Origin: Lytechinus pictus
Lineage: Eukaryota
Reading direction: 5' to 3'
Assembly (NCBI RefSeq): GCF_037042905.1
Contig: NC_087248.1
Location: 15,066,001 to 15,130,000 of the forward strand
Length of the DNA stretch: 64,000 nucleotides
Below the pieces are notes generated by a model. The model was not told where the DNA came from, did no database searches, and worked only from the letters and a program-made list of their open reading frames with translations. How positions within the stretch are numbered: the first letter of the stretch is position 1; each line of letters begins with the position of its first letter. Positions 2,838 to 51,400 of the stretch are shown here, piece by piece. Position numbers and translations under genes: made by a program.

Positions 2838-8382
<5,545 letters not shown>

Positions 8383-9673: not shown

Positions 9674-10134
9674 TACATAGACAAATCACAAGCCTTTTTA
9701 AATAGTTGTTTTGTCAACTGTTTATTCTATTTAAATGAACACTAAACATCATATGTATAAAACTACAGGCTAATGCACATCCATATTATGAATTTATTTT
9801 CATCAATTACACTTGTTTTGGCATAAAAAATTGAATGCAGTTCTCTCCTTTTCCCCTATTTGATTTCTTTTCCTTTTTGGGTATAATTCGATTATTAAAA
9901 GTTTTGATATTAGTGATTACAATTATTCTCAACCAAAAATAAGGTTATGCTATCTTTTTTTCAGAATTAAGAAATATGCAAAATGCTTTTTCTTCTAAAA
10001 TCAGTTTGTAAACCAGTTATTTGCCTGTAATAGATGGTTTCTTATGGGAGCACACACTGACGGAATTCGTCAATAAAGACTTCCTGTCGAAATTACACAA
10101 CTACAACTGTTCCCCTTGGTCTTGGTATGGAAAT

Positions 10135-11196
10135 TTCATTGTGCAATGATGACAGAAGCTGGACGGCCTTAGAGCCTGCTCTGGCTCTTTCAGTCTTGAC
10201 CAAGCTTTGACAGTTTAACCTTTTCTATTGAGCCTTTCCAGGGTAACTGCATTGTCTTTCTAGGCAGCTTTCATTGTACAATGATGAGAGGGAGTGGACC
10301 GTCCCAGACGCTGCTTTGGCTTCTTTTAGTCTGGACCAAGCTTTGACAGCTTCACCCTTTCTATCAAGTTTCTCCAGGATTACTGTATAGTCTTTCTAGG
10401 CAGGTTTCATTGTACAATGATAAGAGGGAGTCGACCGTCCCGGTCGCTGCTTTGACTTCTTTTAGTCTGGACCAAGCTTTAACAGTTTCACTCTTTCTAT
10501 CAAGCTTCTCCAGGATTACTGCATGGTCTTTGTAGTAAGGTTTCATTGTACAATGATGAGAGGGAGTGGACCGTCCCAGAGGCTTCTTTTAGTCTTGACC
10601 AAGCTTTGACAGCTTCACCCTTTCTATTTAGCTTCTCCAGGATTACTGTATGGTCTTTGTAGGCAGGTTTCAGGGTACAATGATGAGAGGGAGTGGACCG
10701 TCCCAGATGCTGATTTGGCTTCTTTTAGTCTGGACCAAGCTTTGACAGCTTCACCCTTTCTATTTAGCTTCTCCAGGATTACTGTATGGTCTTTGTAGGC
10801 AGGTTTCAGGGTACAATGACGAGAGGGAGTGGACCGTCCCAGATGCTGATTTGGCTTCTTTTAGTCTGGACCAAGCTTTGACAGTTTCACCCTTTCTATC
10901 AAGCTTCTCCAGGACTACTGCATGGTCTTTCTAGGCAGGTTTCATTGTATAATGTTGAGAGGAAGTTGACCGTCTCAGATGCTGCTTTGGCTTCTTTTAG
11001 TCTGGACCAAGCTTTGACAGTTTCACCCTTTCTATCAAGCTTCTCCAGGATTACTGCATGGTCTTTGTAGGCAGGTTTCATTGTACAATGATGAGAGGGA
11101 GTGGACCTTCCCAGACGCTGCTTTGGCTTCTTTTAGTCTGGACCAAGCTTTGACAGCTTCACCCTTTCTATTTAGCTTCTCCAGGATTACTGCATG
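10135..11196 (-). repeat. 136-bp tandem array (8 units) derived from the last FANCG coding exon
   Basis: Anchor AAGCTTT(G/A)ACAG at 10202, 10338, 10474, 10601, 10737, 10873, 11009, 11145 (spacing 136, one 127). Confidence 0.93.
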
Positions 11197-14100
11197 GGTC
11201 CTCAAGGAATCTGTATTACCTGCATATGAGATAAGGATGAGAGAGGGTGAGTGAGAGAGAGGGAGGATAAGAGAGAGTGGGAAAGGAATCGGGAGAAGTG
11301 TATATGAGAGAGACAAGAATGGGAGAGAAGAAAAAATAGAAAGGGAAAATACGAAAAGGAGGAAGAGAGGAAGTAAAAGAGGTAAAAGATGGTTAAACTA
11401 TCGACAAATATCTAAGAGTTCAATAGAATAATATGCATCCATTTAAATCAAGTTGGGCAATGTATCGTGCAATACCTGAAACGATGCCAAATTCCCATTT
11501 TTGAAGTTCATGCATGGAAAAAGAATTCTGATATCTGATAATTTAAAATATTCCTTAGTTACGAGTCCATAGATAAGAAATTGCAAAGCCCATTTAAGTT
11601 ACTGATTCCATGATATGTAATGGAGCAATCAAATATTATTCCCAAGCCTACATATATTATTGAACAGTTACATGGGTTAATATAATATTGGCTTCGCACT
11701 AAAGCCACAAATGAGTTTCTCACTGGAATACTAAAATATCATTTCCAGGCCTAGCATTGACAAGTATGAATGATTTATGGATATAAAGGGTTCGCCAGTT
11801 TTAAAGCCACAAATTAGTTTCTAACTGGGATACTATAATATCACTCCAAGGTCTACCTACTAATGTTTTAAAGGTTAATAAGACTTCAAACTAAAGCCAC
11901 AATTTCTTACTGGGAAAGCAGTGGAGGCTTTGCAAGACGACTTTCATTGCATCGTGTGGCTGATTCTGACTCATTAAAATTGATGCTTTGAGCTGATATG
12001 CAATAGATTTCAGGATTGATGACTGCGTTGACTGACTGTCGAATAGGGAGCTTCCTATATTGTCTGGTATTTTCAGGCCATCTGATACTGTATGTTGGAA
12101 AATAAAGTCAGAAGTGACAGGTGTCAAAACCCTTTATCTCAAGAATGCAAAGGAAATAAAATTCAAGACATATGAAAAATTGATGCTGACAACATTACAA
12201 TACTAAGAAAGAGATTGATCTTAATTATTGGAAAAGTATCAACCACATTAACCATCAAAGAAACAATAGAAAAAATAGAAATAAAAACAAAAATACACAG
12301 GAAATTTTTAAAACAATAAAATACCTACAGTGGAAAGTAACATTTTCATACCAATTTTAAAGTTTATGTGCATGTGATCAAAATCCTACAATGAGTCCCG
12401 AGACAGAATGATTGCTTTATTTATAGATTTACAGCCACATCATAAATTCATGCATAAATTAGCACAATTAATTCATGTAAAAGAGATTCAGTGAAATCTG
12501 GCCATGTAACCTTATAGATCATGTAAGTTTTTTTACCATCGTGCAATATTCTGTTGTGATCGCACAATTTGCAGCCGAGGTTTTGAGGGGGTAATAATGC
12601 CCCCCAATCCCTGACTGACAAGACTAGAAATACCCAGAAAATAATAGGTTAAAATATGGAGCTGAGACAAAACAACTTGAACAAGACAGATCCTTGACTG
12701 TACGCACATCAGAACACCAAACTTCTACGATTATCAAATAATGATCTTTGTTACTTTTGACCTTCAACCTTGTAACCCCTACTATATGCATACATGAGTA
12801 AAGTTTGAAGTTGATAACTCGAAAAATATGGTACAGACGGACGGATGGACAGACAACCCCAAATCATCATGCCACCAGCACCCTCCTTTGGTGAGAGGTA
12901 ACATACTAGTAACTGATGTGAAAAGTGGCAGGGCGGGTTGACTCATGCATTTGTACCAAAAGAGATTAAAAGATCACTGTTTTAGCATTTGAAAGATAAT
13001 AATTGATACATACAGTATACGGGATAAGTCTAGAAACAGTACAAATTCAAGAAAAGAGTTCAGAGGTAAAAAGAGAAATTCCCTTCCTATAGTGAGCAGT
13101 CATTGAGACAATCTTTGTTTAGGATTTTTTTTCTACATAATATCATTCACCAATTTGGTCACATCAACTCCCTTTTATTGGGGGGGGGGGTTCTATTTGG
13201 CAATATCATCATGACTCATAACATGATAATTGATATTAATCAGATTTTAGCAGATAGAAAATATGTTTTACCTGAATCGATTCTTCTCCTTTTAGCCTTG
13301 CTGATATCATCTGTGCCCTCATTCTCCTCTATCCTTTGGCCATCCTCGACTCTTTCCGCTATACTGGTCTGCAAGATTCCCAAAGCACACTCAACTTCTG
13401 TCATGGCCAGCTCGGCTTTATGTTCCTTGAAGAGGCAATGTGCTTGCAGTATCAGGGCATGTGCGGTGTAGATTTCATCCTCTTCCTTCTCTTGTCTTCC
13501 ACTATCAGAATTGCTACTGTCAATGTGGACTTGGTTTTCAAGTGTTGATGAGGATGTTCCTGTGACTGCCAAGGTCTCATTCTGCTCCCGCTGCCTCTTC
13601 CTTCTGCCTACAGTGTCCCCAGAACCGCTTTGACCTTGCATGCCAGTACCATGATGGCCAACATTAATACCATGTCCAAGGGTGTGATGTCCACCGGAAC
13701 CACTGCTGCATCCAGGTATACTCCCATCCCTACCATCCCCGCCTCCTTGGTTGACTGGGTGTGAGCTCCTCTCCGCCTTGGAACGCTCCTCGGAAGACGG
13801 TGTTGCACATGGCACCAAGAAAGGGAACCTGCGGGATGACCTCTTGGTTTCATCATCATCCATCTCAGAGGATGAATCTGGTATGTTGTCATGTTGGAGA
13901 AGAGACGATTTGGACAGGAGTTTATCACACACCGCCAGTGCTTCCTGGGTTTTGCCTGCCTTCAGGAGGGCAGTGGCAGCATCCAAATAAATGGTTTTCA
14001 GAGGAGGCAGGAGTGAATTACCTCGGCTGCCTCTATCCTGAAAAGATAGATAAAACCATCCGTGATCAAATACATATCCACTCCCTCTTCCAGTAAAATT

Positions 14101-20100: not shown

Positions 20101-23100
20101 CCGGGGGGGGGGGGCAGTCTAATATATTCCTGTACACATGCATGACCAAAAAAATGTGTTTAAAGGGGTGTTTTTTCAGTTTTGGACGAGGGCTTCGCGT
20201 GCCCTCTTTAAGGGTATCAAAAACACCGATTTTCAAGAAAAAGGGTGGTTTTAAAAGACTGGTCAACTGTCAATCACGGGGTCAAATGTATTTAGGGTAT
20301 GTTTTTTCCCCAAGCTTTTTCCCAGGGGTCTAATTCTGGCGACAACTTGTTTAGGGGCCAAAATGTGTAAATAAAGCCCGCGAAAAACTTGTTGAGGGGG
20401 TTATTTTGCACACAGAGAAAAAACTTGTTTAGGGGGTGTTTGGAAATAATTTGGTCAAGCATGTGTACAGCAATACATTCGACTTCGCGCACAGGAGCAG
20501 GCAGCGCACTAGTGCTAGTTTACTTTAATGTGACTGTGATGCCTTAAAAATGAAAAAAAATTGGCAAAAGCGTAGGAAAAATTTACTGAAAAAAAAAAGA
20601 TCAAAATTTTGCAAAGAAATATGCTGCAAATTTCTCTCCCACCTCCTGGACCCTAGTAAACAGCTAATGCAAGCCGGTCGAGCCATGTCGGCCAGCGCAG
20701 CATAATCGCACACAATATTATGCACTAGCACAGCAAACAGATGTCGACTTTTTCCAATGAGGCATTGCGAGAATTTTGGCCTGTCCATTGCAACCGATAG
20801 ATGGCGCACCAAATTAGGTGAGAGTATCATGGAAAACTTTAGAAGTATATTTCAATGCTATAAATACCTAAACTACATGGACCACAGAAACTTAAAGAAC
20901 ATCAATTTTGCAGGAATGTCAGCATGACATAATAATATACCTCATCATTTGTCTGTAACATCTGTTCTATATAGCCAAGCTGAAGTTCCACGGACCATCT
21001 TTGTAGTAAACAGCATGATATCCACATCAAACCCAAGAGAACTACTTTATTTCCAACACCATTCAAATCTATCATGAAAAAAAAAACGATATCTAGTATT
21101 GTTCGTTAGCCATTTTCTTGTTCCCTATAAAAAATAAATAAATCATGATAAAAATTTCTAACCAATAAGAAGATTCAATTTGATTTGATACAATTTATTT
21201 TTAATACCATATTCAATTCTTAAAATAACAATACAAAACATATGAAAGATTTCATAACCAAATTAACAAATGAAAATGAAATGGAGAACTACAAGGTACA
21301 TATATAAAACCACAAGGCCTCGTACAATTTTACAGTTTCCAAACAAAACATCAAACTCAGGAGAACTACTTGATTTCCAACACCATTCAAATCTATCATG
21401 AAGAAAAAACGATATCTAGTATTGTTCGTTAGCCATTTTCTTGTTCCCTATCAAAAAATGAATAAATAAATAAATAAATCATGATAAAATTTCTAACCAA
21501 TAAGAAGATTCAATTTGATTTGATAAAATTTATTTTTAATACTATGGGGAACTTGGTCGCCCGCGCGAAGTGCTACAATACGCGCGACCGTGCGTGCGAC
21601 CATGCCCCCCAGAAACCCTCCATACGTACGCAGAATCAGGATCCCAAGATCAGACGCATTCTCACGTTCAGCTCTCGATCAGTACAGTACTACAGTCTAC
21701 TACGTATACGTCCCTCAAGTTCACACGAGTCATCAGGTTCTACGACAAGTCTACTTACAAGTTCTACGACAAGCTCTATATACTTACAAGTCATCGAAGT
21801 CTTCATCCTTTGTAAGATTAAGACGGATTGACCCAGGATTAAGGTGAGTATATGGTTCTCGGTAATCCAGCTTACTTTATTTAGGTTAACATCCATATAG
21901 TCAGTTTACTATATATTGGCGCTGCGTATGAACACGACTCTGCGCTAGTTTTGTAAATGCAGTAAAAAAAGCGGCGCAGAAAACTAAATTGGCTAGACAT
22001 CGTTTTAAGTGCTTAAAAGTAGGGAAAAGTGTACCGTAGGGCGGCAAAGTAAATCGCACTCTTTATAAATTGTTTAAACTTTTGATTCAATCCGCCGTCC
22101 TACAGCGATATAGATCTGTATTATAGTTATCTTAAACAAATAATAGCAGTGTTTTAGGGCTTATTCTCAGCGTTTTTGCGTAGGTTTTAAACCCTTACAC
22201 TATCCCCTTAACCCGGTTTAAATTTTGGGTGTGGCAGGACGCCACGTAGGGCACGCCATTTATGCAAATAGCGTTAAACGTTTTCTATTGTTCGCCGCTC
22301 CCCGCATTCTATTGTGTGTTAGGGCTGAATGTATGCCTTGCCTGAGAGTTGCTTGGGGTGTGGTTCTGGCGATGATTTTGTATGTACCCCCTTTCCCTGT
22401 TAGGATTTAATTAAATTAGGATTTGAATTTTGATGTAGGATAATTAAATTTAGGAATTGTACGTAACTGAGATATATATTTATTGTTGAATTTGGCTGTT
22501 GGTGATTTAATGATTGCGTGATTGGTGAAAGATCGTATTGCTTAACCTGACTTTCCCCCCTTTAGCTGTAGCAGACGACGAGGAATCTACGTACGTTGAG
22601 TAGTTGAGTTATGATGATTCTGTATATGCCGTTCTTGATTCGTGAGGTCGTGTATTGATATTACGAGTGAAAACGAATTTTGACCATTTCTTATACAGAT
22701 TTTCCCGTCTTGCAGTAATCATTTTTTGGCGCCAGTTAGGTTGCCGTTTTACGGATTTATTCGGCGCCGTTTAGATTGCCGTTTTGCATATAGGGAGGAT
22801 TTTACTATTGCCGTTTTATAGGTGCGTGAAGTCTGAATTATACCGTGACTTTTTTGTATGGAATTATCCTAGTGTTATCTGGCTAAAACGGAGTTACCCT
22901 CATACGACTTTAGTACGTCGGGTTTCTCTTGTGGACTTTATTTAATGATCAATTTGATTTCATCTCGGTATTAAGATATCATCTCAAAAAAAAAAAATAA
23001 ATAAATAAATAAATAAAAATAAAAATAATAAAATAAGGAGTGATTGATATATTTTATATGCCGTTGCAAGCCACCAATGCTTATATTTAGAGTGGCATTA

Positions 23101-26100
23101 AGCTACAAATTTTAGTGGATGGTATTTATATTAATTAATTACTTAGTCAGTTGGTGAATACTTAGAGTATTTTTTGGAGCTTGAACATAAGTCTGGGGAC
23201 TCGACCAATTATATTATATTGGCCTAACTTGTCTTCGGATTTAGTGAATATACTCATTGATTCCCGTCACGTACATTGGTGACGCTCGTATTTCGGACAA
23301 TTATTGTGCTAATTTTATTTTAGGACTGAAAGTTAACTTTTGACTTTGTATTTTTATAATACGGTCCGTCTCATTATAATCCGACGCTACTTGCGTTAGT
23401 GTAGTTCCAAAAAACTCTCTCGTACTTAATCTGTTCAGACTTCCGTACACCCGTTGGGAATTTATTTAGAGAAAAAAACTTAATAGTTTATTGGAGTTAA
23501 AGATTATATATTTTGACCGTTATAACAATCTCTGGCCACCGGTAGTTTGTTGCAAAGTCGCACCTGCTGTCAATTAAAAGTACAACGATATTATTAATAG
23601 GGCCTTTGTGGATTGTTTAAGCTGATCTGGAGTAAGGATTTTGCTGGATCGTTTGGAGGTTTATACTTTGGAGTTCTTTAGGACAGAAATTTGTACTTAA
23701 CTTAGTTAATACTAGAACTTCTTGTTATTTCTATTGAATTTATTCGAGAAAAGAAATACTTATGTCAATTTTGCTTTGAAAACAAAAAAATACTTATATA
23801 AATTTTGCTTTGAATAAAGAAGAAAATAAAATTTTCATTCGGTTCTGAGATAGAAAGTTTTGAATCTGTAATTCGAGTTTATATAGGAAAGAATTATTCC
23901 AAACAAATTTGACTTTGAGATATAATATTTTAGAACTTCCATCTAATTATAAGAGCATAGGGTGCTTGTAATTTATTTCGGTATTCTTAGTTTATATCAG
24001 TATTTGGTCATTTTCTTTGGTCATCGACAAGCAAGGTCATTTTTAGTTTTTAATTATCTGAAGGGTGTTTTCAGTATACAAAGCTTATAGATAAGGGATA
24101 AGCAAAGTATATATATATACGCCCGAAGATAATTTAAACTTTTGTGTCAGCAGTGGAGGCATTTTCCACTTAGTACACATATAGGTGCTGGGTGCACCTG
24201 GTTAGCTCAGCATCGGAGTAGAGGCTAGTGTTTTATTTTCGGTATATTTACACATTTGTACTTTAATAATATAGGCCTCATATTGGCCATATCAGAGCTT
24301 TAAACCTTTGATAAATTTTAATAATTAGGTTTTCCAAACAAACTTAGTTTTTAGTTGTTGTTGTTTAGCTCTCTGGTAAGATTGATGATTGAAAGTGATC
24401 AATCCTATTTGGTGGTGATCACTGATCAGTGATAATTCTGATTTTCGAAGGAGCTTTACTCAGTACTTAGGTGCTTGTTAGCGTAAGATAGAACTTTCAA
24501 AATTTAGTCACCCTTCCTCGAATCATGTCCAAGATTCAAATTAATTGTTGTGAACCAGAGGAGCTATTGAAGGTCCCAGGAATTGGTAGTACTTTGGCCG
24601 AGCGAATATTGGTCCTCCGAGAGGCTAATGATATTACGATGGAAACTTTCTTAGATATTCCGCACATACGTAATGCCTCTGAGATTGCAGGGTATTTTGA
24701 TTTTGCCCCTTATGCTGTTTTAGAATCTGGCACAAATTCTACCGATTCTATTGAGGAAAGAGTGATAGTAGGCCCTGCTGCGGCAGGTGATGTAGCAGCA
24801 CAGGGCGATGAGCAGCCAACCCAATCCCCCTCTCCCTACCCTTTTGAATCCTATCCTCAAGATTCGTTGCCAGGACATCTTAAAATAGTAATGGGGAGAG
24901 AGAGTGGAGAGTCAGGGGCTGCCAGCTCACGCAGAGATAAGGTAGCTAGAGGCAATTCGCCCTCACGGAAGCATGTGGTTTTCTCTTCGCCGCGAAAACG
25001 CACACCCCCACCGAGGGAAGGTGAGGATGATGGGCTTTCTTCCCCTATGAAGTCACCCTCAAGTGACCAGGCCAGTCCTAGGTCATCTAGGGATCATGCT
25101 AACCCACCAAGGGGTAGCCACGGGTCACCTATATCTCGGTCACCCACATCTGGTCGCCACAACAGCCGCCGTGGATCACCACGTACAAACCGCCGGGATA
25201 GTCGATTTGATTCTCCTTTTCGGGATTATGGTGGGCGCCGACAAGGGTCACCTAGAGGTCACAGGCGGGATCGATATGATCATAGTAGGGATCGTTATGA
25301 TCGGAGTAGGGATCGTTATGATTGCAGTAGGGATCGATATGACTACTATAGGAACAGGTATCGCTATTCCCCTCGCCGATATCGAAATGACCGTTATGAT
25401 TCTCCCCCACGATATTATAGGGGTAATCACAGTCCGTGTAGAGGTCGTGATGATTGGCATAGGTCAAACTCTAACCGTTCCCACTCGCCTGACCATGGCC
25501 CTCGTAGGTCATCATCCCCCCGAAGAACACAAGACCACAATAGGCGGGATGCAAGACAGTCAAATGAAGACGTAGCAGTTGATTTATCATCGCGTGTTTT
25601 GCAATCACTATTTGCCATCAACCGTGCCCCTGAAACGCAGGCCCCCCAATCCCAAGAGCATGATTTCGAGTCCCACAACCCACCACCGGTACGAAGATCC
25701 TTAAGTACCAGTACAGGGGAAGGGGACAGACCCCGACTGGTTTCGGTGCCAAAGTCCATAACCTTTAACGGTACGGGCAGCTGGCAAGCCTTCATTGCGA
25801 AGTTTAAATTATTCGCCAGTGAGAATGGGTGGGACGCCAAACAATCGCGTAATTACTTATGTTGGACGTTAGATGGGGAGGCTAGCTCCTATTTAGCCAC
25901 GCTTCTTGAGCGAGAGCCCGATATGCCATATAACATTATGGTGAATAGGATGGAAAAGAGGTTCACACTTAAAGAAATGCCTGAGGTATCGCAAATGAAT
26001 TTCTCTTATGCAAGACAGGCCCCTGACGAGAATGTCACCAAGTGGGCTGCTCGGTTGCTTACCTTAGCCTCTCAGGCTTTTCCTAATTTGCCCGAGGCAT

Positions 26101-29100
26101 ATGTGCAGCAGCAGGTAGTGATGCGTTTCTGCCAGGGCTCCGCAGATAAGGAAGCTGGGCAACATGCACTCAATTCCAGACCTAAGACTGTGGAAGAGGC
26201 TGTTGATCTTGTTAAATGGTATCAACACTCACACCGAGCTATTTATGGGAAACCGCGCAGGGAGGTTAAACATGTCTCCTTGTCTGAAAAGACCCCCCTT
26301 GAACCAACCGCAAGGCAGGTGAGTGCGCCCCATACTTCCCCAGCGTATACCGTTTTAGAGCGAAGGGTTTCCGCTTTAGAAGGGAAGATGGACTCTGCAC
26401 TAAAGCAATTGGAAGCACTTGGGTCTTTGCCGGCTACTGTTCAAAGCCTAGCTGAGAGTGTAAAAAAGTTAGTAGTTTCTCCTCGTGGTAGAGGCAGAGC
26501 ATCTCCTGCCCGAGGGAATATGTCACCGGGTCGTATTGGTGCCTGCTTCCACTGTGGAAAGTCTGGACACTTCAAGAACGAGTGTCCAGAACGAGGCCCC
26601 CGACCGAGCGTTTCCTTTGTCTGTGAAGTTTTGGGAAACGATTCGGGATCGGAGGAGGAGGTCCGACCCCGATCCCACTAAAAGCGGACCCCAATTCTAA
26701 TTTGGATTCCGAAAATGCCAAAGTACTTTTACAGGATTCGCTCTCTCAAGAGGAGCAAGAAACAGATATATCCTTGGTAGTACTTGAGGCTAACAGGTCG
26801 TTGGATAGCAAAGACTCTCTTCCCAGAGGAAGTAAGGAACTGGGTGTTCCCTCTCCTGAATTGATTGTTAAAGAATCCGAACTGAGAGATGGCGGTCAGG
26901 ACGGTATTGGTATCACTGAAGGGTCAGGGAAAGTTCCGAGTGTCAAGGAACTCTCCTCTCCACCCCCCATCAGCCAGGTGATTGATACGCCTAGGCCTCC
27001 ATTGGAGCCCAGCCCCTGGTTGGTACCCCCCTGGCCACCCCCTGAAGAGGATCCGCAATTAGATAGCTGGATCCTGAAGGACCTCGAACAGGCCTCGGAC
27101 GTTGTAGTCTGCCGGATAAAGTCATCATCTACTTATAGCATAAATATATTGGTCGGTAACCAATTGATGCGTGCCGTAATCGATACTGCTGCAGAGGTGA
27201 CTATAATGTCTGATAAAATCTACCATGCACTACGCCCCGCTCCTCCAGTTATTAGGTCAGTCGTCCTAAATACAGCTGGAAGAAATATGAGTATGACTGG
27301 AATAATTGTAGGACCGGTTGATATGACCCTAGGTGGCCAGACGTTTAGTGAATGCGTCTATGTTGCCCCGATAGACGATGATATGCTGCTTGGAGCTGAT
27401 CTCCTCAAGAAGCACAGTGCATTCATCAATATACCGGATTCCTTGTTAATCTTTCAGGGCGAGTGCATTACCATGACTTGTGGTGAAGACACTGATACCT
27501 CTCAGGTTTTCGTTTCAAATTCTGTGACCATCCCCCCAATGTCAGTCAAACGAGTACAATGCGAACTTGATTCTTCTTGCACGTTTGACCAGTTTATGGT
27601 AGAGCCGGATGTTGCCCTTATAGGATTGGTTCCCCGCACATTGCATTCTGGGAGTAGCTCTATACAGTTATATGCTGTGAATGCTACTGATGTTTCCATC
27701 CATTGGGATAAAGGTCAACACCTTGGACAGGCTTCTCGCGTAGGTTCTAGAGAACCCCCCGACTTTGACAATCCTATTCCAAGTGTCAGCCAGGTTGACT
27801 TGACTGGGGATGCCAAAATCCCCACCCATTTGGAAGATCTTTGGAAACGATCTTCGGAACACTTAATTCCTGAACAGCAAGGAATATTAAAGGGCTTGTT
27901 GCTAGAATTTGAGGGTGTCTTTGCCCGGGATGAATTCGACTTGGGTAATTTCACAGCCATTACCCATTCAATCGACACAGGCGAAGCTACGCCCATCAAG
28001 CAAAAGATGAGGCGTACACCCATGAACTTTGTTCAAGAGGAGCGAGCATGTCTTAACAAAATGCTGTCCGCCGGGGTGATCCAACCTTCGATGTCGGAAT
28101 GGGCGTCCGCCCCTGTCTTAATCCGAAAACGGGACGGTAGCGTCCGTTGGTGTATAGACTATCGTAAACTTAACAACGTTACGAAGAAAGATGTCTACCC
28201 GCTTCCTTGCATCGAAGAGTGTTTGGATACCTTAGCAGAGAATTCATGGTTCTCCAAACTAGATGCAAATTCTGCCTATTGGCAAGTCAATCTCAGGCCG
28301 GAAGACCGTGAAAAGACAGCATTTATCACCAAGTATGGTTTATACGAGTTTGTTCGCATGGGCTTCGGCTTATGTAATGCCCCAGCCACGTTCTCTCGAG
28401 CAATGAATCTCATCCTCAGGGGATTGAACTGGGATATCGCTTTAGCCTTCTTGGATGATGTTGTAGTGCTCGGCACCTCTTTCTCTGATCACGTCACTAA
28501 CATCAGACAGGTGTTGGAACGATTTAGGGACTTTAAGCTTAAGTTGAAGCCAAAGAAATGTTCCTTCTTCCAACGTCGGGTAGAGTTTCTTGGTAGAGAG
28601 GTTGATGGGAATGGTCTCCACCTTAAGGAAGAGCATGTTCAAGCCGTAGTGGACTGGCCCACCCCTAAGTCCACAAAGGAGGTGGAACGGCTCCTCGGAC
28701 TTGTAAATTATCACCGTGTCTTCCTTAAAGACTATGCCCAGGTTGTAGGGCCACTATATGGCCTCACTGGGAACAATGACTTCCGCTGGGAGGACCAGCA
28801 TCAAGTGGCTTTTGAGGAAGTCAAGAGGCTCATGACCACCGCCCCTATCCTCGCACTACCCAACTCCACGGATCCGTTCATTCTGGATACCGATGCGTCT
28901 GGCACAGCTATTGGGGCTGTTTTAACCCAAGTCCAACAGGGGCAAGAGCGAACTATTGCATATGGCAGTTTTTCCCTGACCCCTGAACAACGACGCTATT
29001 GTGTAACCAGGCGTGAGCTGTTGGCAGTGGTACGGTTTACCCGCCAGTATAGGCATTACCTCCTCGGAAAACCTTTTACAGTTCGCACGGACCATGGGAG

Positions 29101-32100
29101 TCTGACATGGTTAATGAACTTTAGGGAGCCTCAAGGGCAGCTTGCCCGGTGGCTCGAAGAACTGGGCCAATATGATATGGCAGTTGAACACCGCCCTGGC
29201 AAGAAACATCAGAATGCCGATGCATTGTCTCGTATACCCGACGGCGACTTTACATGTGAGAACTACCGTCTGGGTATTGACCCCAAGAGTTTGCCCTGTG
29301 GTGGTTGTGCATACTGCCTGAAGGCCCACACAGACTGGGCACACTTCACTGATGCTGTGGACAATGTGATCCAATTGGCACAAAGGAGTAAAGTTTCGGA
29401 AGTTACCCTTGACCCCGGAGAATCGGAGGACCTCTTTATCACTCACCTGGATATTGGTCCAATCGACGGTCCATTCTCTTTTAGGGTCAACGGGGTAACC
29501 CATGATGCCGGGTCTGGTATCGACCTCACCTCAATGGACTTTCTTCGGAAAGAACAAGAGGCTGATGGTCAACTGACCCCCTTGCGCAAATGGCTGCTCG
29601 ATAAAGAGGAACCAGACGAGGGAACTGTTCTTCTGTGGGACCCCGCTGGAAAGTTCCTATGGGTCAACCGAGAGCTGTTTGTGCTTAAGGATGGTGTCAT
29701 TTGGCGTAAAGGCGATGACAATCTCCTACTTGTAGTGCCCAAGTCTTTGCGTACTGAAGTGATCAAGCTAAATCATGATCCTCCTTCAGCAGCTCATGCT
29801 GGTGTGAACCGTACTAAAGGTAAACTTCGGTCCAAATACTACTGGTATGGTATGTCGGGCGACATCCAAGAGTATATTCGGAGATGTGCCGTCTGTAATA
29901 AAAATAAGAAAGCCGTGAGGTATGGGAAACACCCCATGATAACTTATCATGCGGGGGCCCCGATGGAACGTGTACACCTCGATTTCATGGGTCCTTTACC
30001 CAAAACCTCACGAGGTAACGTGTACATCTTGATGATGGTGGACCAGTTCACCAAGTGGGTTGAGTGTGTCCCACTGCCCTCTCAGACAGCGGAAGTAACT
30101 GCTCAGGCAGCCATTAGCGAGTTCTTTTGCCGCTTTGGCTATCCATTCCAGATTTTTACTGATCAGGGCAGAAATTTTGAGAGCAGGTTATTCACGAACA
30201 TCTGTAAACTGCTCCATATACATAAGGCTAGGACTTCCCCGTACCGACCTTCCGCAAACGGCCAGGTTGAACGTTTCAACCGAACCTTAATGGATGCGGT
30301 AAGGTGCTACATTGGGAAGTCCCAGACTCATTGGGACCACAACCTCGCCCAGATCGCTGGAGCGATTCGTTCCACGATCAACCGTAGTACGGGATTCACG
30401 CCCAATCAATTGATGCTGGGGCGTGAAACTAATCAACCAGCGGAGCTGATTTTTCCACTTCCCCCATCCGTCTCTGACCGACCTCTGGATGAATATTCAT
30501 CTCAGAGCATCCGAGAGGCGCACGATGCTGCGAGAGCCACCCTCCGGAATACACAGCGACGGTTGAAGCGGGATTACGACATAAAGGTATACTTGCGGCA
30601 ATTTAAAGAAGGGGACCGAGTATACCTTCTCGCCAAGGCGACCCCCAAGGGAAAATGCAAGAAGCTGCAATCTCCCTGGAAGGGTCCGGCTATTATCGTG
30701 AAGCGATATACCCCTTATGTATACCGGGTGATCTATCGGAACAAGGCCCTGACTGTAAACCATGACCAGCTCAAAAGGTGCCTTGACGAGGCCAAGCCCT
30801 CAGGCCCTGACTGGAGGAAGGAAAGGTATTGCTACTGTAGAACCCCCGACGATGGATCGTTCATGATTCAATGTGATGGGTGCGATGAGTGGTTCCATGG
30901 TGCATGTGTTGGTGTTACCCATGCGGAAGGAATGTCTATTGACAAGTATTTTTGTCCTTTTTGTAGCTGTGGGTAACCCATTTCCTTTTCTCTTTTCAGA
31001 TGGATGAGCTAGAACTCCACGCCGAGTCAACCTTCGAGGTGGAAATGGACACCCGGCCCCCCTCTACCCCCCCAGAGGCTATCCCTCCAGAGGCTGCCTG
31101 GCAAGCAGAAATAGATGCACGGATGGGCCCAATCCCGCCCCCTGGCAGTAGACAAAAACGTACGTGGCTCCGTAAGTTGCGTCGATTACGGAGTCGGTTA
31201 AGGGCAGGGTCCAGGGATTCCCCTAATTCCCTAAAGGAAACTCCCGGTCCTGCCCCTGTCATGATGAAGGGCGTTAAGCCATCCAAAGGAATGGGGAGGG
31301 GGAGAGGGTTTGCAAGGGTCCGCAAGGGTCCCATAACACCCGGCACGCCCGGTACTTTCCATAGTAAGGGGAGAGGGAGGGGTCTCTTGAATTACCTCAA
31401 CCGAGAAGATTTCTCTTTAATGGATGCCCCCGCCCCTGCTCCGAGCTCCCATCCCCCGCCTCTGCTAGGGTTTGATAGCCATTTTCACCCAGACAGGTGT
31501 GGTTGGTACAGTAAGAGAAAGGGGAAGAGCGTGGTGACAAAGCACCCGGTAGAGATAGTCGGAGGGGTCCTGAACTTCTGTGACCCAGAGTTCTTTATGG
31601 ACCCCGGCTTTCTTTCCCGGGTGCTGGCTCACAGCCCCCCATACAACAAGAGGGACGGGAGCTGGAGATTAGCAGTAGGGATACACCCTAAACAGGCCTC
31701 GCAGTACACCGAAGATCAGTGGCAGCGTTTGGTTGCCCTACTTCAAAGCCCCTTGGTTGTAGGCGTAAGCGAACTGGGCTTTGACTTTTCTGTCAACTCC
31801 CAGTGGTGGCCTGACCAGGAAGCGCTCTTTCTGCGACTTCTTGGTCAGGGCACCCAAGGGAGGGTCCTTATCCTTCACCTAAGGGGTGATTCGAAGAATA
31901 ATACCGCGTACGCGGCGCACACTTTGGCCCGCCGGCTTCTTGCAAAGCACTGCTCCCCACTCCAAAGGATACACATCCATAACTTCTCCAGCGATGCTTT
32001 GCAAGCCGGGAAATGGATCGCTGCCTTTCCATATTGCTATTTCGGTATTGCCGGGATGGCAGCGTACTTCACAACAGAACAAATTCAAGGCCTTAGGGCC

Positions 32101-35100
32101 GTCCCCGCGGATCGGCTAATTCTGGAGACCGATGCTCCGCATCTCCCTCCTCGCCCGGACATGACGGTGACTTCACCTGAAAGCCTGGGTGATGTGGGGG
32201 CGGTGGTAGCCAACCTGCGGGGGCAGCCCTTGGCCACTATAATGGCCCAAGCCACATACAATGCAAAACTACTGTATGGCCTGTTAGGGTAATAGGGTAT
32301 GTTATTCATTTTTTTGGTGGCCCCTGTCTCATGTTTTATTTTTCTGTCCAAAATCTTGCCCTTCCTACTTTGGAAGTTAATTAAAAGATAAAGTCGCGGC
32401 CTATCCATGTAATTGAGGGGTCTTAGGTTCTTCTCTTCTGCGATGCAGTATTTTCTCTCTCCGGAGAACGTTTCTATTCTGTATCGTGGCGGAGAAGGAC
32501 TGAGAAGTTTTCCCAACGTACCGGGCCGAACTAGACCAGATTTTACATTCCCAAGTGGAAAGTGTCTGTTGGCTGTCATCTTTCGGACCCTCCTTAGTCT
32601 TCAGGGACTGGTAAAGGTTGCGGACTCTTATATTCCATAAAGCCCAAGGGACATTGGTTTAGTTTTTTGAAATATTGTGCCAACTTGTGTCGCACGTAAA
32701 GTTATATATCCAGGTGATATTATATTTATTCCAACCGTGGTGCCAAAATACGTCACAAGTGAGTTTATAAATTTCTTTACATACTATCCAGCGGATATAG
32801 GTTTGGTTTTCAAAGACAATATTGTGCCAAGTTGTGTCACACAAAGTTTTTTAGTTATTTCAACCATTGTGCCGAATGACGTCACAGGTAAAATTATACA
32901 TTTCCTTTAATGATATCCAGGCGATATGGTCTTCAATTTAGTTTTAAAGTCTGCTGGCCAAGCAAGGCTTATTACTTGGTTATCATCCTCCAAAGATTGG
33001 GGATTGAGATTTGGGGCCATCCATATTTTTTTGTGTGTAAATAGTCCTTTTCACGCATGAACTACATGAACTACATGCTTAGTAGCTCGTAACCTAAAGA
33101 CATGTATACATATATATGTATATGTTCAATAAAGTTTTTTGAGGGTCTGTTTAATGCCCACGAGTATAGGGAAAGAAACCTAAATTTCCTTAGTATATGT
33201 TTTCGTGATATTTCCGAGATACTGGGAAGTAAATAGTTCCTTTCAGGGGTCTAGGACGAGTGTTTTTATTCTTGGTACTACATGTACCGGTTTATTGTTA
33301 CTTTTTTGTCCACTCCTCAGACCTATCTTTATATCTACATGAGTGATTAGGAAAGTACAGTTAATAATCAATCTCCCCTTTATTTTTACGGTTGGGGGGA
33401 ATATGGGGAACTTGGTCGCCCGCGCGAAGTGCTACAATACGCGCGACCGTGCGTGCGACCATGCCCCCCAGAAACCCTCCATACGTACGCAGAATCAGGA
33501 TCCCAAGATCAGAGGCATTCTCACGTTCAGCTCTCGATCAGTACAGTACTACAGTCTACTACGTATACGTCCCTCAAGTTCACACGAGTCATCAGGTTCT
33601 ACGACAAGTCTACTTACAAGTTCTACGACAAGCTCTATATACTTACAAGTCATCGAAGTCTTCATCCTTTGTAAGATTAAGACGGATTGACCCAGGATTA
33701 AGGTGAGTATATGGTTCTCGGTAATCCAGCTTACTTTATTTAGGTTAACATCCATATAGTCAGTTTACTATAATACCATATTCAATTCTTAAAATAATAA
33801 TACAAAACATATGAAAGATTTCATAACCAAATAAAAAAATGAAAATGAAAAGAACTACAAGGTACATATATAAAACCACAAGGCCTTGTTCAAATTTACA
33901 GTTTCCAAACAAAACAAAAATGACAGTTTATTCAAATGATTCACCAGAGCTCTGACAATGTTTTGAACAATAATAGTAGGTAGTGTATTACTTATCAAGA
34001 AAATTACTGCCATCATACTTGACATATGAATCACAAAGAAAGACACAAATAGTGTAACTATCAAGAAAACCACGACCAAGAAAATATGTGAAAGATATTG
34101 AATTCAAGCGACTGATTATGATTGTGTAGCTAGTTTATTGTCTAGCTAGTGACTTCAAATCTCCATAATTTTATTTGCAGGAATTTTTGGGGGCCGACAA
34201 GAATTTGATATGGAGGCTTGTTTCATACTGTATAGTAATTTTTTACAAATGTTACAAATATATTCTAGAGTAAGTAGAGTAGGCCTACTGTGAATGATAT
34301 TATAAGATAACGTCTCTGCATCTGAAAGGCACGGTATATAGTAAGTTTAATAGAAGCATACTTTTAATATAATTTTTATGTTGAATTTACCTGACGATTT
34401 AATTGAAATCTTCTGAATCATGATGGTGATGTCATCTTCTTGTGGAGCCTCCTCACCATACAAAAACCTGTAGACTGAAAGAAAAAAGTTTAGGTTTGAC
34501 AGTGTCCAATTCACATTCAATAGACTTTCTTGATAAATATACAAACCCATGCTAAATATGTTGAGCCCCCCCCCCCCTTCAGCAAAAAAAAAAAATCAAT
34601 CAGGGTCAAGAGTTTTAAATCACTTCTATGAGTATAACCAGGAGAAATGCTCTTTATTTAAAAAAAATAGATAGAATTAATTCACACACCCTCCATCTAA
34701 AGAAAAATAAAATGAATAAATCAAACTACACTTTTTCAATTAAAAAAGAAAACAATCAGAAATAAATTAATGTTCTTTTACAATTCTCAAGAAATTACAT
34801 ATTTTTATATTTCAAAAACATAATGGAAGGGCAAATGAAAATTCAATGTTGGCCGAGTTTCATTTGAAACCCCCCTTTTGTGCTTGACTTGAATCATTAC
34901 TATTTTGTTCAATTGTTGGATGCTTTACCACTAAAACCAACCCATTGCAGCGGGTCCCTCTATATGCTTTCCTCAGCTTACCTCTTCTGAAGGCTTGGTT
35001 GATCATCGGGCGACTTAACCCTACCAGACCATCCGGTCCATGCTCGCCTGATCTTCTTAGATTGTTAATCGCATGTTTGCATGTTGCACTGAGAACAGTC

Positions 35101-43910: not shown

Positions 43911-46900
43911 TCAGATTTTGAACCCCAGGGACCTCATGCACTCCTTATGCGCTTCAATTAGATCGCCACACTGTGCTTCTCCTTTCTCCATTATGCTTTG
44001 GAAAAACAAACAGAGAATTACATGAGAGAGATGATGGATAATGGACAATTTGATGAACACAAATGAAAACAAAACAATTTAACCCTCTTCTTTGTCAAAC
44101 AGACAAATACATACATGTAGGGCCTGCATGAAACAACAATTTTTCATTGTATTGAGTTTGGATGTTTCAGCAACATCGCAATTGATATTTTTTGGCTGCC
44201 AGATTCACAGAATGCATGCATGGAACTACGTCACAGCATGTCTGGCAATGTCAACAAGATGTCTTTAATTAGAAAGTGTTGTTTTAATGGTTAAAAAAAA
44301 TATATCACACATACTTAATTAGCCACAACATGTACGTCTGTTTGATGGGGCTTTTTTTAGGATAGTGGAATCCAATCCTGGTTTAAAATATCCACAATCA
44401 GGCCTGCGATAAAGTCTATTATTTCAAGATGAAAAAACTTCCACAATCATCACAGAACTCTATTATACATGTAGCCCCACACCCCACCTCTTCACTGACA
44501 CTATTTATCTTTTATTTATATACCGAGGTTTTTTACCCGACTGCTAAGAAAGCACGAATGCCTGTGAGCAAGCAACCAGGGGACCAACGGCTTAAGGTCC
44601 TTTCCAAGGGACCTGGTAATGAGGATAAATGCCTTACCAAAGGGCACTAGCGCACCACTTGGGAATCGAACCCGGGTCACCGGAATCCGAAACCCCCGCT
44701 CTAACGACGGAGCTATCGCGCCTCCCTTGATTACAAATTGCTTTCTACAGTCATGCATCGTGTGGTTGCGTACTTTGGGATAACATGGTGATTTTTGCTT
44801 CCGCATCACATTGTATATTACGATAGCAATAAGGTATACATTTTCTGACAGGAAACTGCCCAACGGTCATCAAATCTAAAGATGCAATCAGAAATAAAAA
44901 AGATCCTGGCCTACATCTATGCAGATTCTTTATTTGGTCAGGCACAAGATATTACAGTTTTAACGCATGTAGATTTATCATCTACCCACCATCAAATTCG
45001 CAAGAATCCTACTCAGGCCGGCCCCAGGCCATTGGACTAGGAACATCATAATTCTGTTGATAACTTGATATCAGAATTAGTGAATTTGGATAAGAAAAAC
45101 AAAACATTAACCTAGATTTTTTGGGTCTTCTATCATTAATAATGGCGATTGGGCATAATTTAAAAGTAACATTAACATTATTGCCTTTGGCCAGGCACCG
45201 TAAAGAATGTAAAAATTATAAAAATTTATAGCCCTAGATCTAGTACATTTCCAGGCTGGAAAGGGTTCCTTTTGTGACAGTCACCCTAACCCTAAAGCCC
45301 AGCTTTGAAAACAGACGGGAGCGACGAGCGATTCCGCTCTTGTGTGCTTTTGAATCGCTCTCGCAACTGCCTAAAAACTGCCGAGTACGGAGCGACTCCC
45401 AACATGAAAATGGCTCCCGTCCGCGCCCATCCGGTCTCCCATCCACGCTTGCATACATGTACAAGCCAGACAGACTTCTATGCATTGTCACTTTTTGACG
45501 TGTAACTGAGTGTACTTTTTATAGTCACGAGCACGGCGTTTCAGAAAATGCGTATCCAGTTCACTGATACTCCGATATCCCGGAGCACTATTTTTCAAAA
45601 CACTGTGCGGCACCTGTCTTGCCGGAACTTTGATAGAGAAAAATTAATTGTTTTTGAAGATACCAACCTAAATTTGCTAGAAAATAAGTTTGTGTACTCA
45701 GAACAAAATCACAGATTTTTTCATTTTAGCATGTTTTTGGCGACCCCACTTCTTAAATCCTAACTAAGCCACCAGGTACTCTGGAAATATGGTGCGGATC
45801 CCGCAATTTGAAGGGCGAAATTAGGATTTTCAGCCCCGATTTTTGGTTACAGTCAGTGCCTCAGTATATACATGTAAAGGCGTTAATGCAGTTTCATACC
45901 CGCCTGTATTGCAGTAATGATTGACTGTGACCTATGCTACTAGCTGTGCTGGAGTAGGCGTAGCTTAGCTTTTGAAATAAGTTGACATGTTGAGGTAATA
46001 GCTGTCACTGTCAGGCTGCAATGCATTCAATATTTCATAAAATAATTTTCAAGTGAGTTTTTATCAAATAATAAATCAAAAATTATGATAAGGATTTCTC
46101 TGAGCACAAATCCTGTTCAAATTTGATAACCTTCATCTAAATCAATTTGATTGAAAAAGATGTAAAAGAATGTTCAGTTGATTTAATGTGTGATGCACAA
46201 TAAACATTAAATGAACAATAAATTAAATAATCATTTAACAAATTACAATGAAGAAAAAATAAATGTCAATTAAAAAAACAATGTTAAACATTAAATGAAT
46301 TTGTAAACAAGCAGGACAAACAGCGATGCTAAACCATGCGTTGAATCATGAAAAATAGAAATAATGGCTCTGGTAAAATGAAAAATGTCTCTCAAAATTT
46401 TTTCAAAATGGCTCCTTAAAAATAAAAAGTAATTTCAACACGGCTGGCTCGACAGCTGGCAGCCGTCTGCTTCGAGGAGTTTTTTAACATTTTTTTTTCA
46501 TTTCTCCTCGTACACAGACGGCTCGCGGTCTTGCAGCCTCCATCAGGGGGTTAAAAATGCAAAATCCCCCCAACGGTGCTCATCCGTTTTTGTCTTTATT
46601 TCATAAATCATATAAAAAGAACTGGACCAAAATAAAGGTTATTATTCTGTTTTGGCCTGAAATGCACCAAAACTGGACAAAATAAACTTAAAAGGACCAA
46701 AACAGTGACTTAATTCGGCTGTCGCGCAACTTCACTTCCCTGGTTTATCCAAACTTAATGAACATATCAGGGGCCGCGGAAGTGGGGGCTGGTTTTTTTT
46801 CTCCCAAAACCGTGTATAAAAACGTAAAAATTACCATATGATTGTGCTTTTTTGCATGCTCAGCCCCCCCCCCCCCCCACTTTGAAAACCGTTCCGTGGA

Positions 46901-48479: not shown

Positions 48480-51400
48480 AGAACTTTGATAATTTTGTGT
48501 GTGATTTAGATTAAGTTGATATTTGGAGGGAAATTAATGGCGTTAATACCTTGGTCACATTTGCTCTATATACGGCGGCCGTACGGCGAGTCGAAAACAG
48601 CCGTTTTAACATTTTTTGTACCAACTACATAGGCCTATAGGTGGTTTTAATTAAAATTAATAAAGGTTGTTTTCGACTTGCCGTACAGCAAATGTGACCA
48701 AGGTATAAGACACAGTATACTTTTAGACAAATTAACCCCTTTATGCAAAGCAGGTTAGATTATTGGTTTATTACCGGGGTTTATTACAGAAAGATTTAGA
48801 AAACTCGTTTTAACATACAGTGATATAATCCCGTCTATATATAGCGCCAGATCACTCGGCGGTTGTATTTCAACTCTGTAGTAAACCCTCTCAGTCATTT
48901 CAAACATCTAAAGGCACTTATTGGAAATTTAACAATAGTCTATGTACAGATGGTGATTTCACTCGACAAATGAAAGAAAAAATTATCAATTTGAAAGAAA
49001 CTTTTAAAAAAGAAATCAAAGATGAAAATGAAAATGAGTAATTTTTCTCGAAAATATTCAAAAGAAAAGGCTGAAAAAACGAAGAGAGATAATTAAAGAT
49101 TTAGAAAAAGAAATTGATGGTATTCAAACGAGATTAGCTACAAATATGAATAAACAAGCAATTTTATTAGACAATACAAAGACAGAATTAAAGGCATGTT
49201 ATGACTATGTGAGCGAAGGTCTTAAAATCAGATCGAGAGCTTCTTTTTATGAAAGTGGGTAAAGGGATACCAGGTACTTTACTCAGTAATGGAATCTAAC
49301 AATAAGAAAACAAATATACGTAAATTATAAGAGATAGAATAACTTTTGATCAAAATGAAATAAAAAATGAAATAGGAACTTTCATAGCATGTTATATGCA
49401 AAGAGAGACGATAAGATCCTTGATGATGATTTTTTCTCCGATGTAACAAAATTATCAGACGAATCGATGAAATAATGTGAAGGGAAAATTACGAAAGGTG
49501 AATGTTTAGCTGCTTAAAAGGAATGAACTTGAATAAATCACCGGGTAATGACGGGCTTAGCGTATAATTTTATTTAGTGTTCAGTGGCCGCTGATTGGGG
49601 ATGTTTTAGTTGATGATTTAAATAATGATTTTATAAGAGGATCGAGAACTTTCGCCATCACAAAGACAAGCTACTATTACTTTAATTCATAAAGAAGGAA
49701 AGGATCCATTACATATTAAACATTGTCGGCCCATCTCACTGTTAAATGTGGACTACAAGATTTTGGCGAAAGGTACTTTCAACAAGAATAAAGGAGGTGT
49801 TGCATGAAAATAATCAATGTCGACCAAGTAAGATATTTAAAAGGAAGGAATATTGGGGAAGCTATTAGACTTATAGATGACATGATCTTTCACTCGGTAA
49901 AAATGATATATCGGCATATCTATTGGCCATTAATTTTGAAAAGGCATTTGATTCTGTTTCACATTGTTTTTTATTTAAAGTATTGCAAACTTTTGGTTTT
50001 GGACCCTCATTTTGTAAATGGATAAGTACTTTGTATAAAAAAGCTGAAAGTTGTGTTTTTAATGGCAGTATTTCAACAGGTTACTTTGATAAAGGGAGAG
50101 GGGTAAGACAAGGAGATCCGTTATTCCTCTATCTCTTTATTTTATGTATTGAAATATTGGCTAACAGAATAAGATTTGAACCAGAAATTCACAGAATTAA
50201 GTTTGGGAATACAGAAGTTAAGCAAATGCTATACGCAGATGATATGACAATTTTTGTAAAAGACACTCAGTCGATTGAAAAGTTAGATATGCTGTTCGAA
50301 TGTTTTGCCGAAACGTCAGGGTTGAGGATGAATAAAGATAAAACCTTTATTATGTTACTGGGACACCATGGAAACATAGATCCAATCTAACCTTTTGGTA
50401 AAGTGGAGCAAATGGTTAGGATCTTAGGTATATTTTTTTCATTAGATAGAGAAAGTCAAGTAATAATAAATTACAAAGAAATACTTAGTAGAATAAAGAA
50501 GATTTTGATGTGGTGGAAGCAAAGGGATTTGACATTAATGGGCAAAATTCAGTTAATTAAAACATTTTTACTATCTAAATTGATATACATTTCTTTTCTT
50601 ATATACCCTTGTCCCGACATGGGTAATATAGGATCTTAATACATTGATCTTTGGATTTTTATGGGGTGGTAAAGATAAAATTAAAAGAGACATTGTTTAT
50701 TTAGATTATGATAATGCTGGTCTAAAAATGACAGATTTTCAGTTATTCATTAAGACACAAAGAATTATGTGGATTTAAAAGACTTATAATGGGAGAGCAA
50801 AAATGAAATAGAAACAATATTTCAGATACTTAGCACACGGTATGAGAGGATTGCTGATTTTTTTTAGTAACCTCACAATGAATTTGATAGGATTTGAATT
50901 GCCGGAATTTTATACAGAAATGTTAGATGTATGGTTTCATAAAAAAAAAAGTTTTTACTTAAAGAAGAGAAGAATAAAAGAAATGAGATCATTTTCAATA
51001 ATAAGTTCATCCGTTTGAAAGGACAAACATATTATAATGAAAAGCTGTTTTTGAAGATTATTTATAAACTCCATCATATTGTAGATAAAGATGGGTAGAT
51101 GAAGTCTATCTCGACCCTTCAAAAAATGGGTTTGGATCGTTTTGAAATAGAAAAGATACTCGATATTCTTAATAACATTCCATACTTTTGGAAGGACTCG
51201 CTGAAAAAAGAGGGTCAAAGTTTCATAGATAGTGAGTTAATTTTGGATTTTCAGTTAAAGGGCAGGATTTTTGACTCGCAAGACATCACATCAAAAATAA
51301 TATATGATACTCTTGTAAGGATGAAAACGGATATACTCCAAGCATTTAAAAAGCTTGAGGAAAAAATAATATAACAAAAAAAGATATTTCTGATATTTTT

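Follow-up and report, generated by a model that had tools for sequence, protein, structure and literature searches.

The env-type third open reading frames (ORF3s) of errantiviruses and retroviruses lie past pol and are reached through a single splice, whose donor is near the 5' end. Enzymes are also found in this position: the env-position ORF3 of the rotifer long terminal repeat (LTR) retrotransposons Juno and Vesta encodes a DEDDy exonuclease or a GDSL esterase, and ORF3s are typically expressed from spliced messages (PMC5408684). Accessory domains of retrotransposons have been reviewed, with helicases, chromodomains and DnaQ-like domains among them and TatD absent from the accessible text (PMC6338049); a literature search with Repbase, subscription journals and supplements outside its scope found no TatD borne by a retrotransposon. 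Such a case is described here. In a stretch of 64,000 nucleotides from the sea urchin Lytechinus pictus (contig NC_087248.1, positions 15,066,001 to 15,130,000; hereafter the window), an intact Ty3/Gypsy LTR retrotransposon of 12.2 kb (21543-33772) carries, between pol and its 3' LTR, an ORF3 with a complete TatD domain and predicted nuclease activity.

The nearest precedent is the DEDDy ORF3 of the rotifer elements, likewise a nuclease gene in the env position that has intact catalytic residues and is missing from some branches (PMC5408684). The two differ in fold, DnaQ-like DEDD in Juno and Vesta and TIM-barrel TatD in the window, and in history; the rotifer ORF3 was acquired at least twice and is common to Penelope-like elements (PMC5408684), whereas the TatD ORF3 goes back to what is probably one acquisition, has co-diverged with the reverse transcriptase (RT) over nine families and reaches other phyla. 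Compared with an env ORF3, the product is an enzyme, and the LTR itself contains the splice donor, which precedes the primer-binding site. Animal TATDN2 shares with this ORF3 the group II HxH motif, the two glutamates and the aspartate needed for activity, the FCxP cysteine and a long disordered N-terminus (PMC10711561, PMC12709183, PMC10085689); ORF3 differs in being intronless, multi-copy and mobile, in its unrelated N-terminus and in its variable second cysteine, and most of its relatives have an extra zinc-finger/helical domain that TATDN2 lacks. The PHD finger at the end of the element's integrase has counterparts of its own: Ginger1 transposases combine a C-terminal PHD finger with 4-bp target duplications, as here (PMC2836005), and chromoviruses carry a chromatin reader, the chromodomain, at the end of a Gypsy-type integrase (PMC12440569). 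Unlike in Ginger1, the PHD finger sits here on a full LTR retrotransposon, and TatD is unmentioned in the accessible parts of both papers. A TATDN2-like gene label in the squid Hox cluster is all that the accessible part of PMC6962438 contributes, and the named Gypsy clades listed in PMC6238403 (CsRN1, Cigr-1, MolGy and others) come with no PHD or nuclease match in its accessible text. New here are the kinship with TATDN2, the co-divergence with RT, a family without the gene, an undescribed companion domain and two likely domestications.

The TatD domain of ORF3 and its relatives

ORF3 (31000..32292, forward strand) opens with an ATG at 31000, runs for 430 codons and ends with a stop codon at 32292. 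An earlier note on this DNA, made from the letters alone, had placed an intronless frame at exactly these coordinates; the refinement is that its ATG stands directly past a splice acceptor. The C-terminal part (31465..32292) is a TatD domain of group II, a class defined by HxH followed by E, H, H and E-x-D (PMC10085689). Its motifs occur in order, DSHFH (H161, H163), SELGFD (E258), LHLR (H293), IHNF (H327) and ETDAP (E376, D378), and the ordered pattern was found in none of 20,000 shuffles of the protein. The Pfam family TatD_DNase (PF01026) matches residues 158-427 over the full length of the model (1-253 of 253; E 3.9e-29), with 102 bits against a curated cut-off of 27. The AlphaFold2 model of the domain is a TIM barrel (predicted local distance difference test, pLDDT, 90.5; predicted template-modelling score, pTM, 0.90), in which the ligands H, E, H, H and E/D are placed in or just past strands 1, 4, 5, 6 and 8; the 15 best rows listed by Foldseek for this model are TatD-family structures or uncharacterised relatives, at template-modelling scores of ~0.7. 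The Pfam search and the structure prediction had both been proposed as checks in the earlier note, and its central claim, a retrotransposon-encoded TatD nuclease with a complete metal-binding site, is borne out by the agreement of Pfam match, ordered motifs and element context: at the level of sequence, ORF3 is confirmed as a group II TatD domain with all seven catalytic residues, and its nuclease activity is predicted.

The N-terminal extension (31000..31464) is rich in Pro, Arg, Lys and Gly. Residues 51-135 form a basic stretch with 24 K or R and 2 D or E, GRGRG occurs at 99 and 124, and the basic motif KRTWLRKLRR is common to related proteins. This agrees with the earlier description of an Arg/Lys-rich N-terminus with two GRGRG repeats, and so does the verdict that ORF3 is not an envelope protein; membrane helix, signal peptide and envelope or fusion-protein similarity were looked for by hydropathy and Pfam and not found, and the highest 19-residue hydropathy of the protein, 1.36, lies within the nuclease domain. 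A fusion of ORF3 to integrase was considered and rejected; pol has its own stop and ORF3 its own ATG, and the sole splice seen comes from the LTR.

In a tree of 49 rows, the element-type TatDs (support 100/100) and animal TATDN2 (99/98; represented by arthropods, a mollusc, L. pictus and a mammal) are sister groups, and together they stand apart (100/99) from 15 bacterial rows, including Escherichia coli TatD, YcfH and YjjV; a quick tree of 102 rows has the same shape. The comparison with TATDN1, TATDN2, TATDN3 and bacterial TatD that the earlier note had called for thus ends on the TATDN2 side, with TATDN1 and TATDN3 compared by score only. With one and the same profile, 16 of 18 TATDN2 rows score 173-209 bits, the exceptions being two partial or damaged rows; 35 bacterial rows reach at most 132, human TATDN3 72 and human TATDN1 54. 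An F/Y-C-x-P motif is present in 10/10 element ORF3s and 18/18 TATDN2 rows and in 0/35 bacterial rows; in the window it reads FCDP, with C194 as the TATDN2-type cysteine. Judged by spacing on P0119, this cysteine is likely the equivalent of human C538, which has been called special to TATDN2 (PMC10711561). On these comparisons, animal TATDN2 proteins are the closest sampled relatives of ORF3, and its identity as a TatD protein with an origin in the TATDN2 branch appears very probable. It is not the orthologue of the host TATDN2, which is a separate, intron-containing gene (L091); ORF3 falls outside the TATDN2 clade, is intronless and is multi-copy. Since the element clade lies outside a TATDN2 sample that spans arthropods, mollusc, urchin and mammal, the capture is likely older than the splits among these animals, unless fast evolution pulled the element clade out; the direction of transfer, from host to element, is assumed.

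The database proteins closest to ORF3 are labelled Lytechinus and Strongylocentrotus. A profile search of representatives clustered at 50% identity returned 614 matches at E <=1e-30; the best 150 of these are all better than 1e-55, and among them none of 133 new representatives was closer to a TATDN2 profile. Species names, carried by 3 of 20 representatives looked up, and other named relatives point to an urchin (Diadema), bivalves (Dreissena, Mya, Pecten, Argopecten) and a brachiopod (Lingula). Mya has 13 near-identical models, and Dreissena has clusters of 11 and 31 spread over several large contigs, a pattern as would be expected of a young transposon. Element context outside the L. pictus genome is shown for two cases and otherwise suggested by such copy patterns: L191, a contig of a Sedimenticola bin with integrase-PHD-TatD repeats, and P0176, a chimeric zebra-mussel gene model in which a TatD ORF3 is joined to Gag, to RT-RNase H and to a TatD tail. 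Because it carries the integrase-PHD, L191 is likely animal DNA in a bacterial bin, and P0094, a protein labelled Sedimenticola, is likely of the same kind. A bacterial or viral origin of ORF3 was rejected; L111 and L191 were the only element-type loci among 160 listed metagenome and prokaryote-genome loci, and no relatives were found in viral contigs.

A Gypsy lineage with and without ORF3

The TatD domain has 91 matches in the L. pictus genome. Homologues mostly outside LTR elements had been named in the earlier note as the finding that would speak against its reading; instead, 22 of 30 examined loci with long coverage lie directly behind an integrase-PHD, and 20 of these 22 are enclosed by LTRs that are 94-100% identical. 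Of the remaining eight, three are intact non-LTR open reading frames, one is a deleted copy, two are rearranged pieces and two are broken pieces that stand alone; among further broken loci, five of eight also lie behind integrase-PHD. Nine LTR families, that of the window included, share the layout gag-pol(integrase-PHD)-TatD. Their RTs are 66-85% identical and their TatDs 34-50%, and the TatD and RT distance matrices correlate (Mantel r 0.80, p 0.0003). Scored against the window RT, 34 of 147 RT matches reach 63% identity or more, and none of the others exceeds 49%; the close group is a clade (100/100) and includes the RT of a zebra-mussel gene model, with 169 of 260 residues identical. Outgroup Gypsy loci contained neither TatD nor PHD (0/14; positive controls found 2/2). 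ORF3 thus marks an old Gypsy lineage, one clade and no single event.

Inside the same RT clade, family N (L274, L275, L277) has the integrase-PHD and an acceptor-like site past pol and lacks a TatD frame; its copies are young, with LTRs 99.4-99.7% identical. Because this young, nested family does without ORF3 and because RNase H is intact, ORF3 can be lost and is accessory to the element. The idea that TatD stands in for a dead RNase H was rejected, as the D, E, D residues of RNase H are kept. Short LTR-TatD-LTR copies (L039, L298, L299) were considered as integrated spliced messages. This reading was rejected, as the copies retain the LTR end beyond the donor and are products of internal deletion.

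Purifying selection acts on ORF3 where it is present. All seven catalytic residues, H-H-E-H-H-E-D, are intact in 10/10 element ORF3s across nine families, and synonymous sites are saturated between the families that keep them; the set is intact in 32 of 37 relatives of unknown context and in neither of two non-LTR derivatives. Between the window copy and L039, the ratio of replacement to synonymous rates (dN/dS) is 0.066 over 273 codons, with 81 synonymous and 25 replacement differences, and three shorter pieces of older copies give 0.07-0.16; the RT value for families A and C is 0.03. Two further ORF3 pairs are weaker (0.18 and 0.36), two near-identical pairs are uninformative, and the non-LTR paralogues have a dN/dS of 0.41, which is not significant.

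Three long, intact TatD frames (L041:3992-6280, L043:3992-6316 and L081:3989-7528) have no pol match or LTR pair nearby and nest among the element TatDs in the tree. In L041 and L043 one ligand is changed from His to Gln, and a first exon lies kilobases upstream; in L081 three catalytic residues are lost. Another Lytechinus species has two proteins, P0074 and P0078, whose nuclease domains are nearly identical to those of the three frames, and these non-LTR TatDs are closer between the two species than three element ORF3 pairs are. Judged by their sequences, L041/L043 and L081 likely represent two domestications of element TatDs.

Upstream of TatD, six of the nine families and 64 of 66 long representatives have a conserved domain of 150 residues (L055:4228-4695 and matching parts of L047, L067, L071, L075, L077 and L081) that starts like a zinc finger (C-x4-C...H-x4-H), continues with helices and ends in NSPA-x-L-x-HWR; it is absent from the window family, from families C and E and from TATDN2. 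Its model has a pLDDT of 91.6; Pfam has no match to it at cut-off, solved structures offered no significant sequence match beyond the TatD part, and Atlas scores were all below 0.9.

Element structure and expression

The window element, on the forward strand throughout, has paired LTRs, a primer-binding site, a polypurine tract and a target-site duplication around gag followed by protease, RT, RNase H and integrase. The 4-bp duplication ATAC flanks it at 21539..21542 and 33773..33776, and duplications of 4 bp also surround other copies and families. The 5' LTR (21543..21913, 371 bp, with the ends TAT...ATA) and the 3' LTR (33402..33772) differ by one mismatch over 371 bases, and the polypurine tract (33390..33401) adjoins the latter on its 5' side. 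The primer-binding site TGGCGCTGCG (21917..21926) is presumably of tRNA-Ser type; a pattern search of the genome for the tRNA found nothing. Gag (24525..26681) has an N-terminal helix-hairpin-helix, a PNMA-like capsid region and a CCHC zinc knuckle, and overlaps pol (26627..30976) at a predicted -1 frameshift site, the heptamer G GGA AAC (26633..26639). Pol comprises protease, RT, RNase H with D, E and D present, integrase and the C-terminal PHD finger (30830-30964). Because the twelve LTR matches of at least 97% in the genome form six pairs and include no solo LTR, the window family has spread very recently.

ORF3 is likely translated from its own spliced message, in the style of env. The donor AAG/GTGAGT (21843..21849, exon end 21843) lies within the 5' LTR, and the acceptor (30977..30999), with 16/16 pyrimidines followed by CAG, abuts the ORF3 ATG and is the strongest of 355 YAG acceptor sites in the element. 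Older variants retain a GTRAGT donor in their upstream LTRs, and one contig of sequencing run X2 contains the GT..AG joint 21843-31000, from the LTR donor to the ORF3 acceptor. In most other families, too, an acceptor is found close to where ORF3 starts, and a donor within the LTR or close to it; a pattern search by family found no clear acceptor in family H and no donor in family D. Sequencing runs listed as holding the element include none on record as RNA, and three raw RNA runs gave too few reads for strand, level or joints. Two further contigs were observed: one of X6 joins non-element sequence to the acceptor at 30999, and one of X7 runs from the LTR end (21913) into a flank unmatched to any G000 copy.

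Further observations concern the element and its surroundings. The helix-hairpin-helix at the Gag start (24525-24640), a DNA-binding motif, falls just below the cut-off of Pfam HHH_3, and the Gag start of family N is similar. LTR termini other than TG...CA occur in the window family (21543-21913, TAT...ATA), in family E (TAT...TTA) and in family H (TGT...ATA; loci L050 and L068 for the two families). The sixth copy of the window family (L300, L301; G000:C11 near 23.76 Mb) has RT in an open frame of 2165 codons and an internal deletion that cuts ORF3. The element is placed in a locally duplicated stretch with ~330-bp spacing (21024-21545). Elsewhere the window contains a tandem array with a 136-bp unit (10050-11292), two copies of a tRNA-Arg-like repeat (366-566 and 44519-44725), and, at 3585-4553, 49881-50390 and 59250-60047, an open reading frame that weakly matches RsmB/F methyltransferase (E 1.6e-4) as well as two RT fragments, separate from each other.

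Possible functions of the nuclease

TATDN2 shows RNA 3' exonuclease as well as endonuclease activity on R-loops and hairpins, little activity on DNA and minimal activity on plain RNA:DNA duplexes (PMC10711561); in medaka, R-loops increase when tatdn2 is lost, and the resulting damage kills the germ cells (PMC12709183). The disordered N-terminus of TATDN2 is needed for R-loop binding. Since the element TatDs are sister to this RNA and R-loop nuclease needed in germ cells, an RNA substrate seems more likely for ORF3 than the DNA roles. The mechanism that is tentatively preferred, and that as a whole falls a little short of an even chance, makes ORF3 an accessory nuclease of the TATDN2 branch which cuts R-loops or hairpins in the nucleus and so aids the element in germ cells. 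A TATDN2-type gene would have been captured once, early in animal evolution. The LTR promoter would give rise to the genomic RNA and to a short message with 21843 spliced to 31000, and the nuclease would thereby be made apart from Gag-Pol; the basic, disordered N-terminus, by analogy with that of TATDN2, may serve nuclear entry and nucleic-acid binding. The two-metal site would then break down structured RNA or the RNA strand within R-loops, located at the element or derived from it, and this clearance would keep transcription going, lower replication stress in germ cells and perhaps blunt RNA-guided silencing.

Several observations weigh against this mechanism or against one of its steps. The splice joint comes from one contig, with 30 letters on its short side, of a run (X2) that is only guessed to be RNA, and the three RNA runs, of which ~6% was read, yielded 13, 7 and 21 reads with no joint among them. 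The tree contains no plant, protist or cnidarian TATDN2 and no eukaryotic TATDN1 or TATDN3, and the element enzymes form a long branch beside the TATDN2 sample and outside it; their substrate may differ. The second TATDN2 cysteine (human C656, past the last His) is Asn328 in the window ORF3; six of ten element ORF3s have a cysteine equivalent to C656, as do E. coli TatD and YcfH, and one alignment puts a cysteine of YcfH in the C194 column. The N-terminus of ORF3 is not homologous to that of TATDN2, and the window family lacks the zinc-finger/helical domain that most relatives have. The coding region of the element has no G-skew that would favour R-loops (skew near 0), and the host keeps its own TATDN2 (L091), which leaves the need for a second copy unexplained.

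The roles listed in the earlier note ranged from trimming and repair of cDNA ends to attack on rival elements. The nuclease identity beneath that list stands; its emphasis on DNA exonuclease and AP (apurinic/apyrimidinic) endonuclease activity is less well supported, since the nearest kin is TATDN2, with little DNA activity (PMC10711561). ORF3 as a DNA-directed 3'-5' exonuclease or AP endonuclease that repairs integration gaps or damaged cDNA is accordingly thought unlikely. DNA exonuclease and AP-endonuclease activities are found in human TATDN1 and TATDN3 and in all three E. coli paralogues and are therefore probably ancestral (PMC10085689); the element enzyme, which has the same two-metal group II site, is far diverged from TATDN2. 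Against this role speaks, besides the nearness of TATDN2, that all 14 outgroup Gypsy loci manage without TatD. Integration gaps are, moreover, normally repaired by host enzymes. A place in the particle, where ORF3 would act as a second RNase beside RNase H and trim RNA primers, template ends or strong-stop intermediates, is improbable. It would suit the RNA 3' exonuclease activity of TATDN2 (PMC10711561), 3'-end processing has been suggested for the rotifer DEDDy ORF3 (PMC5408684), and the basic N-terminus could bind genomic RNA; but ORF3 has an acceptor of its own and is not fused to Gag-Pol, the element's RNase H is intact, plain RNA:DNA duplexes are poor substrates of TATDN2 (PMC10711561), and the recent spread of family N took place without ORF3, although it may have been helped in trans. 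The cDNA trimming proposed earlier is weakened, in its essential version, by the same intact RNase H and the same young family.

To a similarly small degree, ORF3 may be a conflict factor, directed against small-RNA precursors, rival elements, viruses or the surplus cDNA that triggers sensing, an explanation that partly overlaps with the preferred R-loop mechanism. Accessory status and fast turnover of the N-terminus fit it, TATDN2 cleaves hairpin RNA (PMC10711561), and helicases borne by retrotransposons, with weak silencing-suppressor activity, offer a precedent (PMC6338049); purifying selection on the catalytic domain, however, is strong, and the pairs tested show no sign of an arms race. 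A recently captured host retrocopy, carried along as a functionless passenger, would account for the loss in one young family and for the very low expression in the RNA runs read. The selection and co-divergence results largely refute it, and it is very improbable: against it stand the dN/dS of 0.066, the retention of the catalytic residues between families whose synonymous sites are saturated, the correlation with RT (r 0.80, p 0.0003) and the same layout in L191 and in the zebra-mussel gene model.

The R-loop mechanism can be extended to a wider picture, doubtful as a whole: a Gypsy lineage that dates back at least to the divergence of echinoderms from molluscs and brachiopods may possess its own germ-line R-loop RNase, an early offshoot of TATDN2 which would clear RNA:DNA structures and evade RNA-guided silencing, together with the zinc-finger/helical domain and a PHD-tipped integrase, and catalytically damaged copies may have been domesticated twice in urchins as possible decoys against it. 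Many of the urchin and bivalve models named 'putative deoxyribonuclease TATDN2' or 'YabD-like', or left uncharacterised, are likely element ORF3s, and apparent TatD expansions in these animals may therefore be transposon copies. ORF3, as a small single-domain enzyme, would be useful for studying the basis of the RNA specificity of TATDN2. More generally, accessory enzymes reveal the host barriers that a retrotransposon must overcome; a nuclease of TATDN2 type that a transposon lineage has retained over hundreds of millions of years would link transposon success to the control of R-loops or structured RNA in germ cells.

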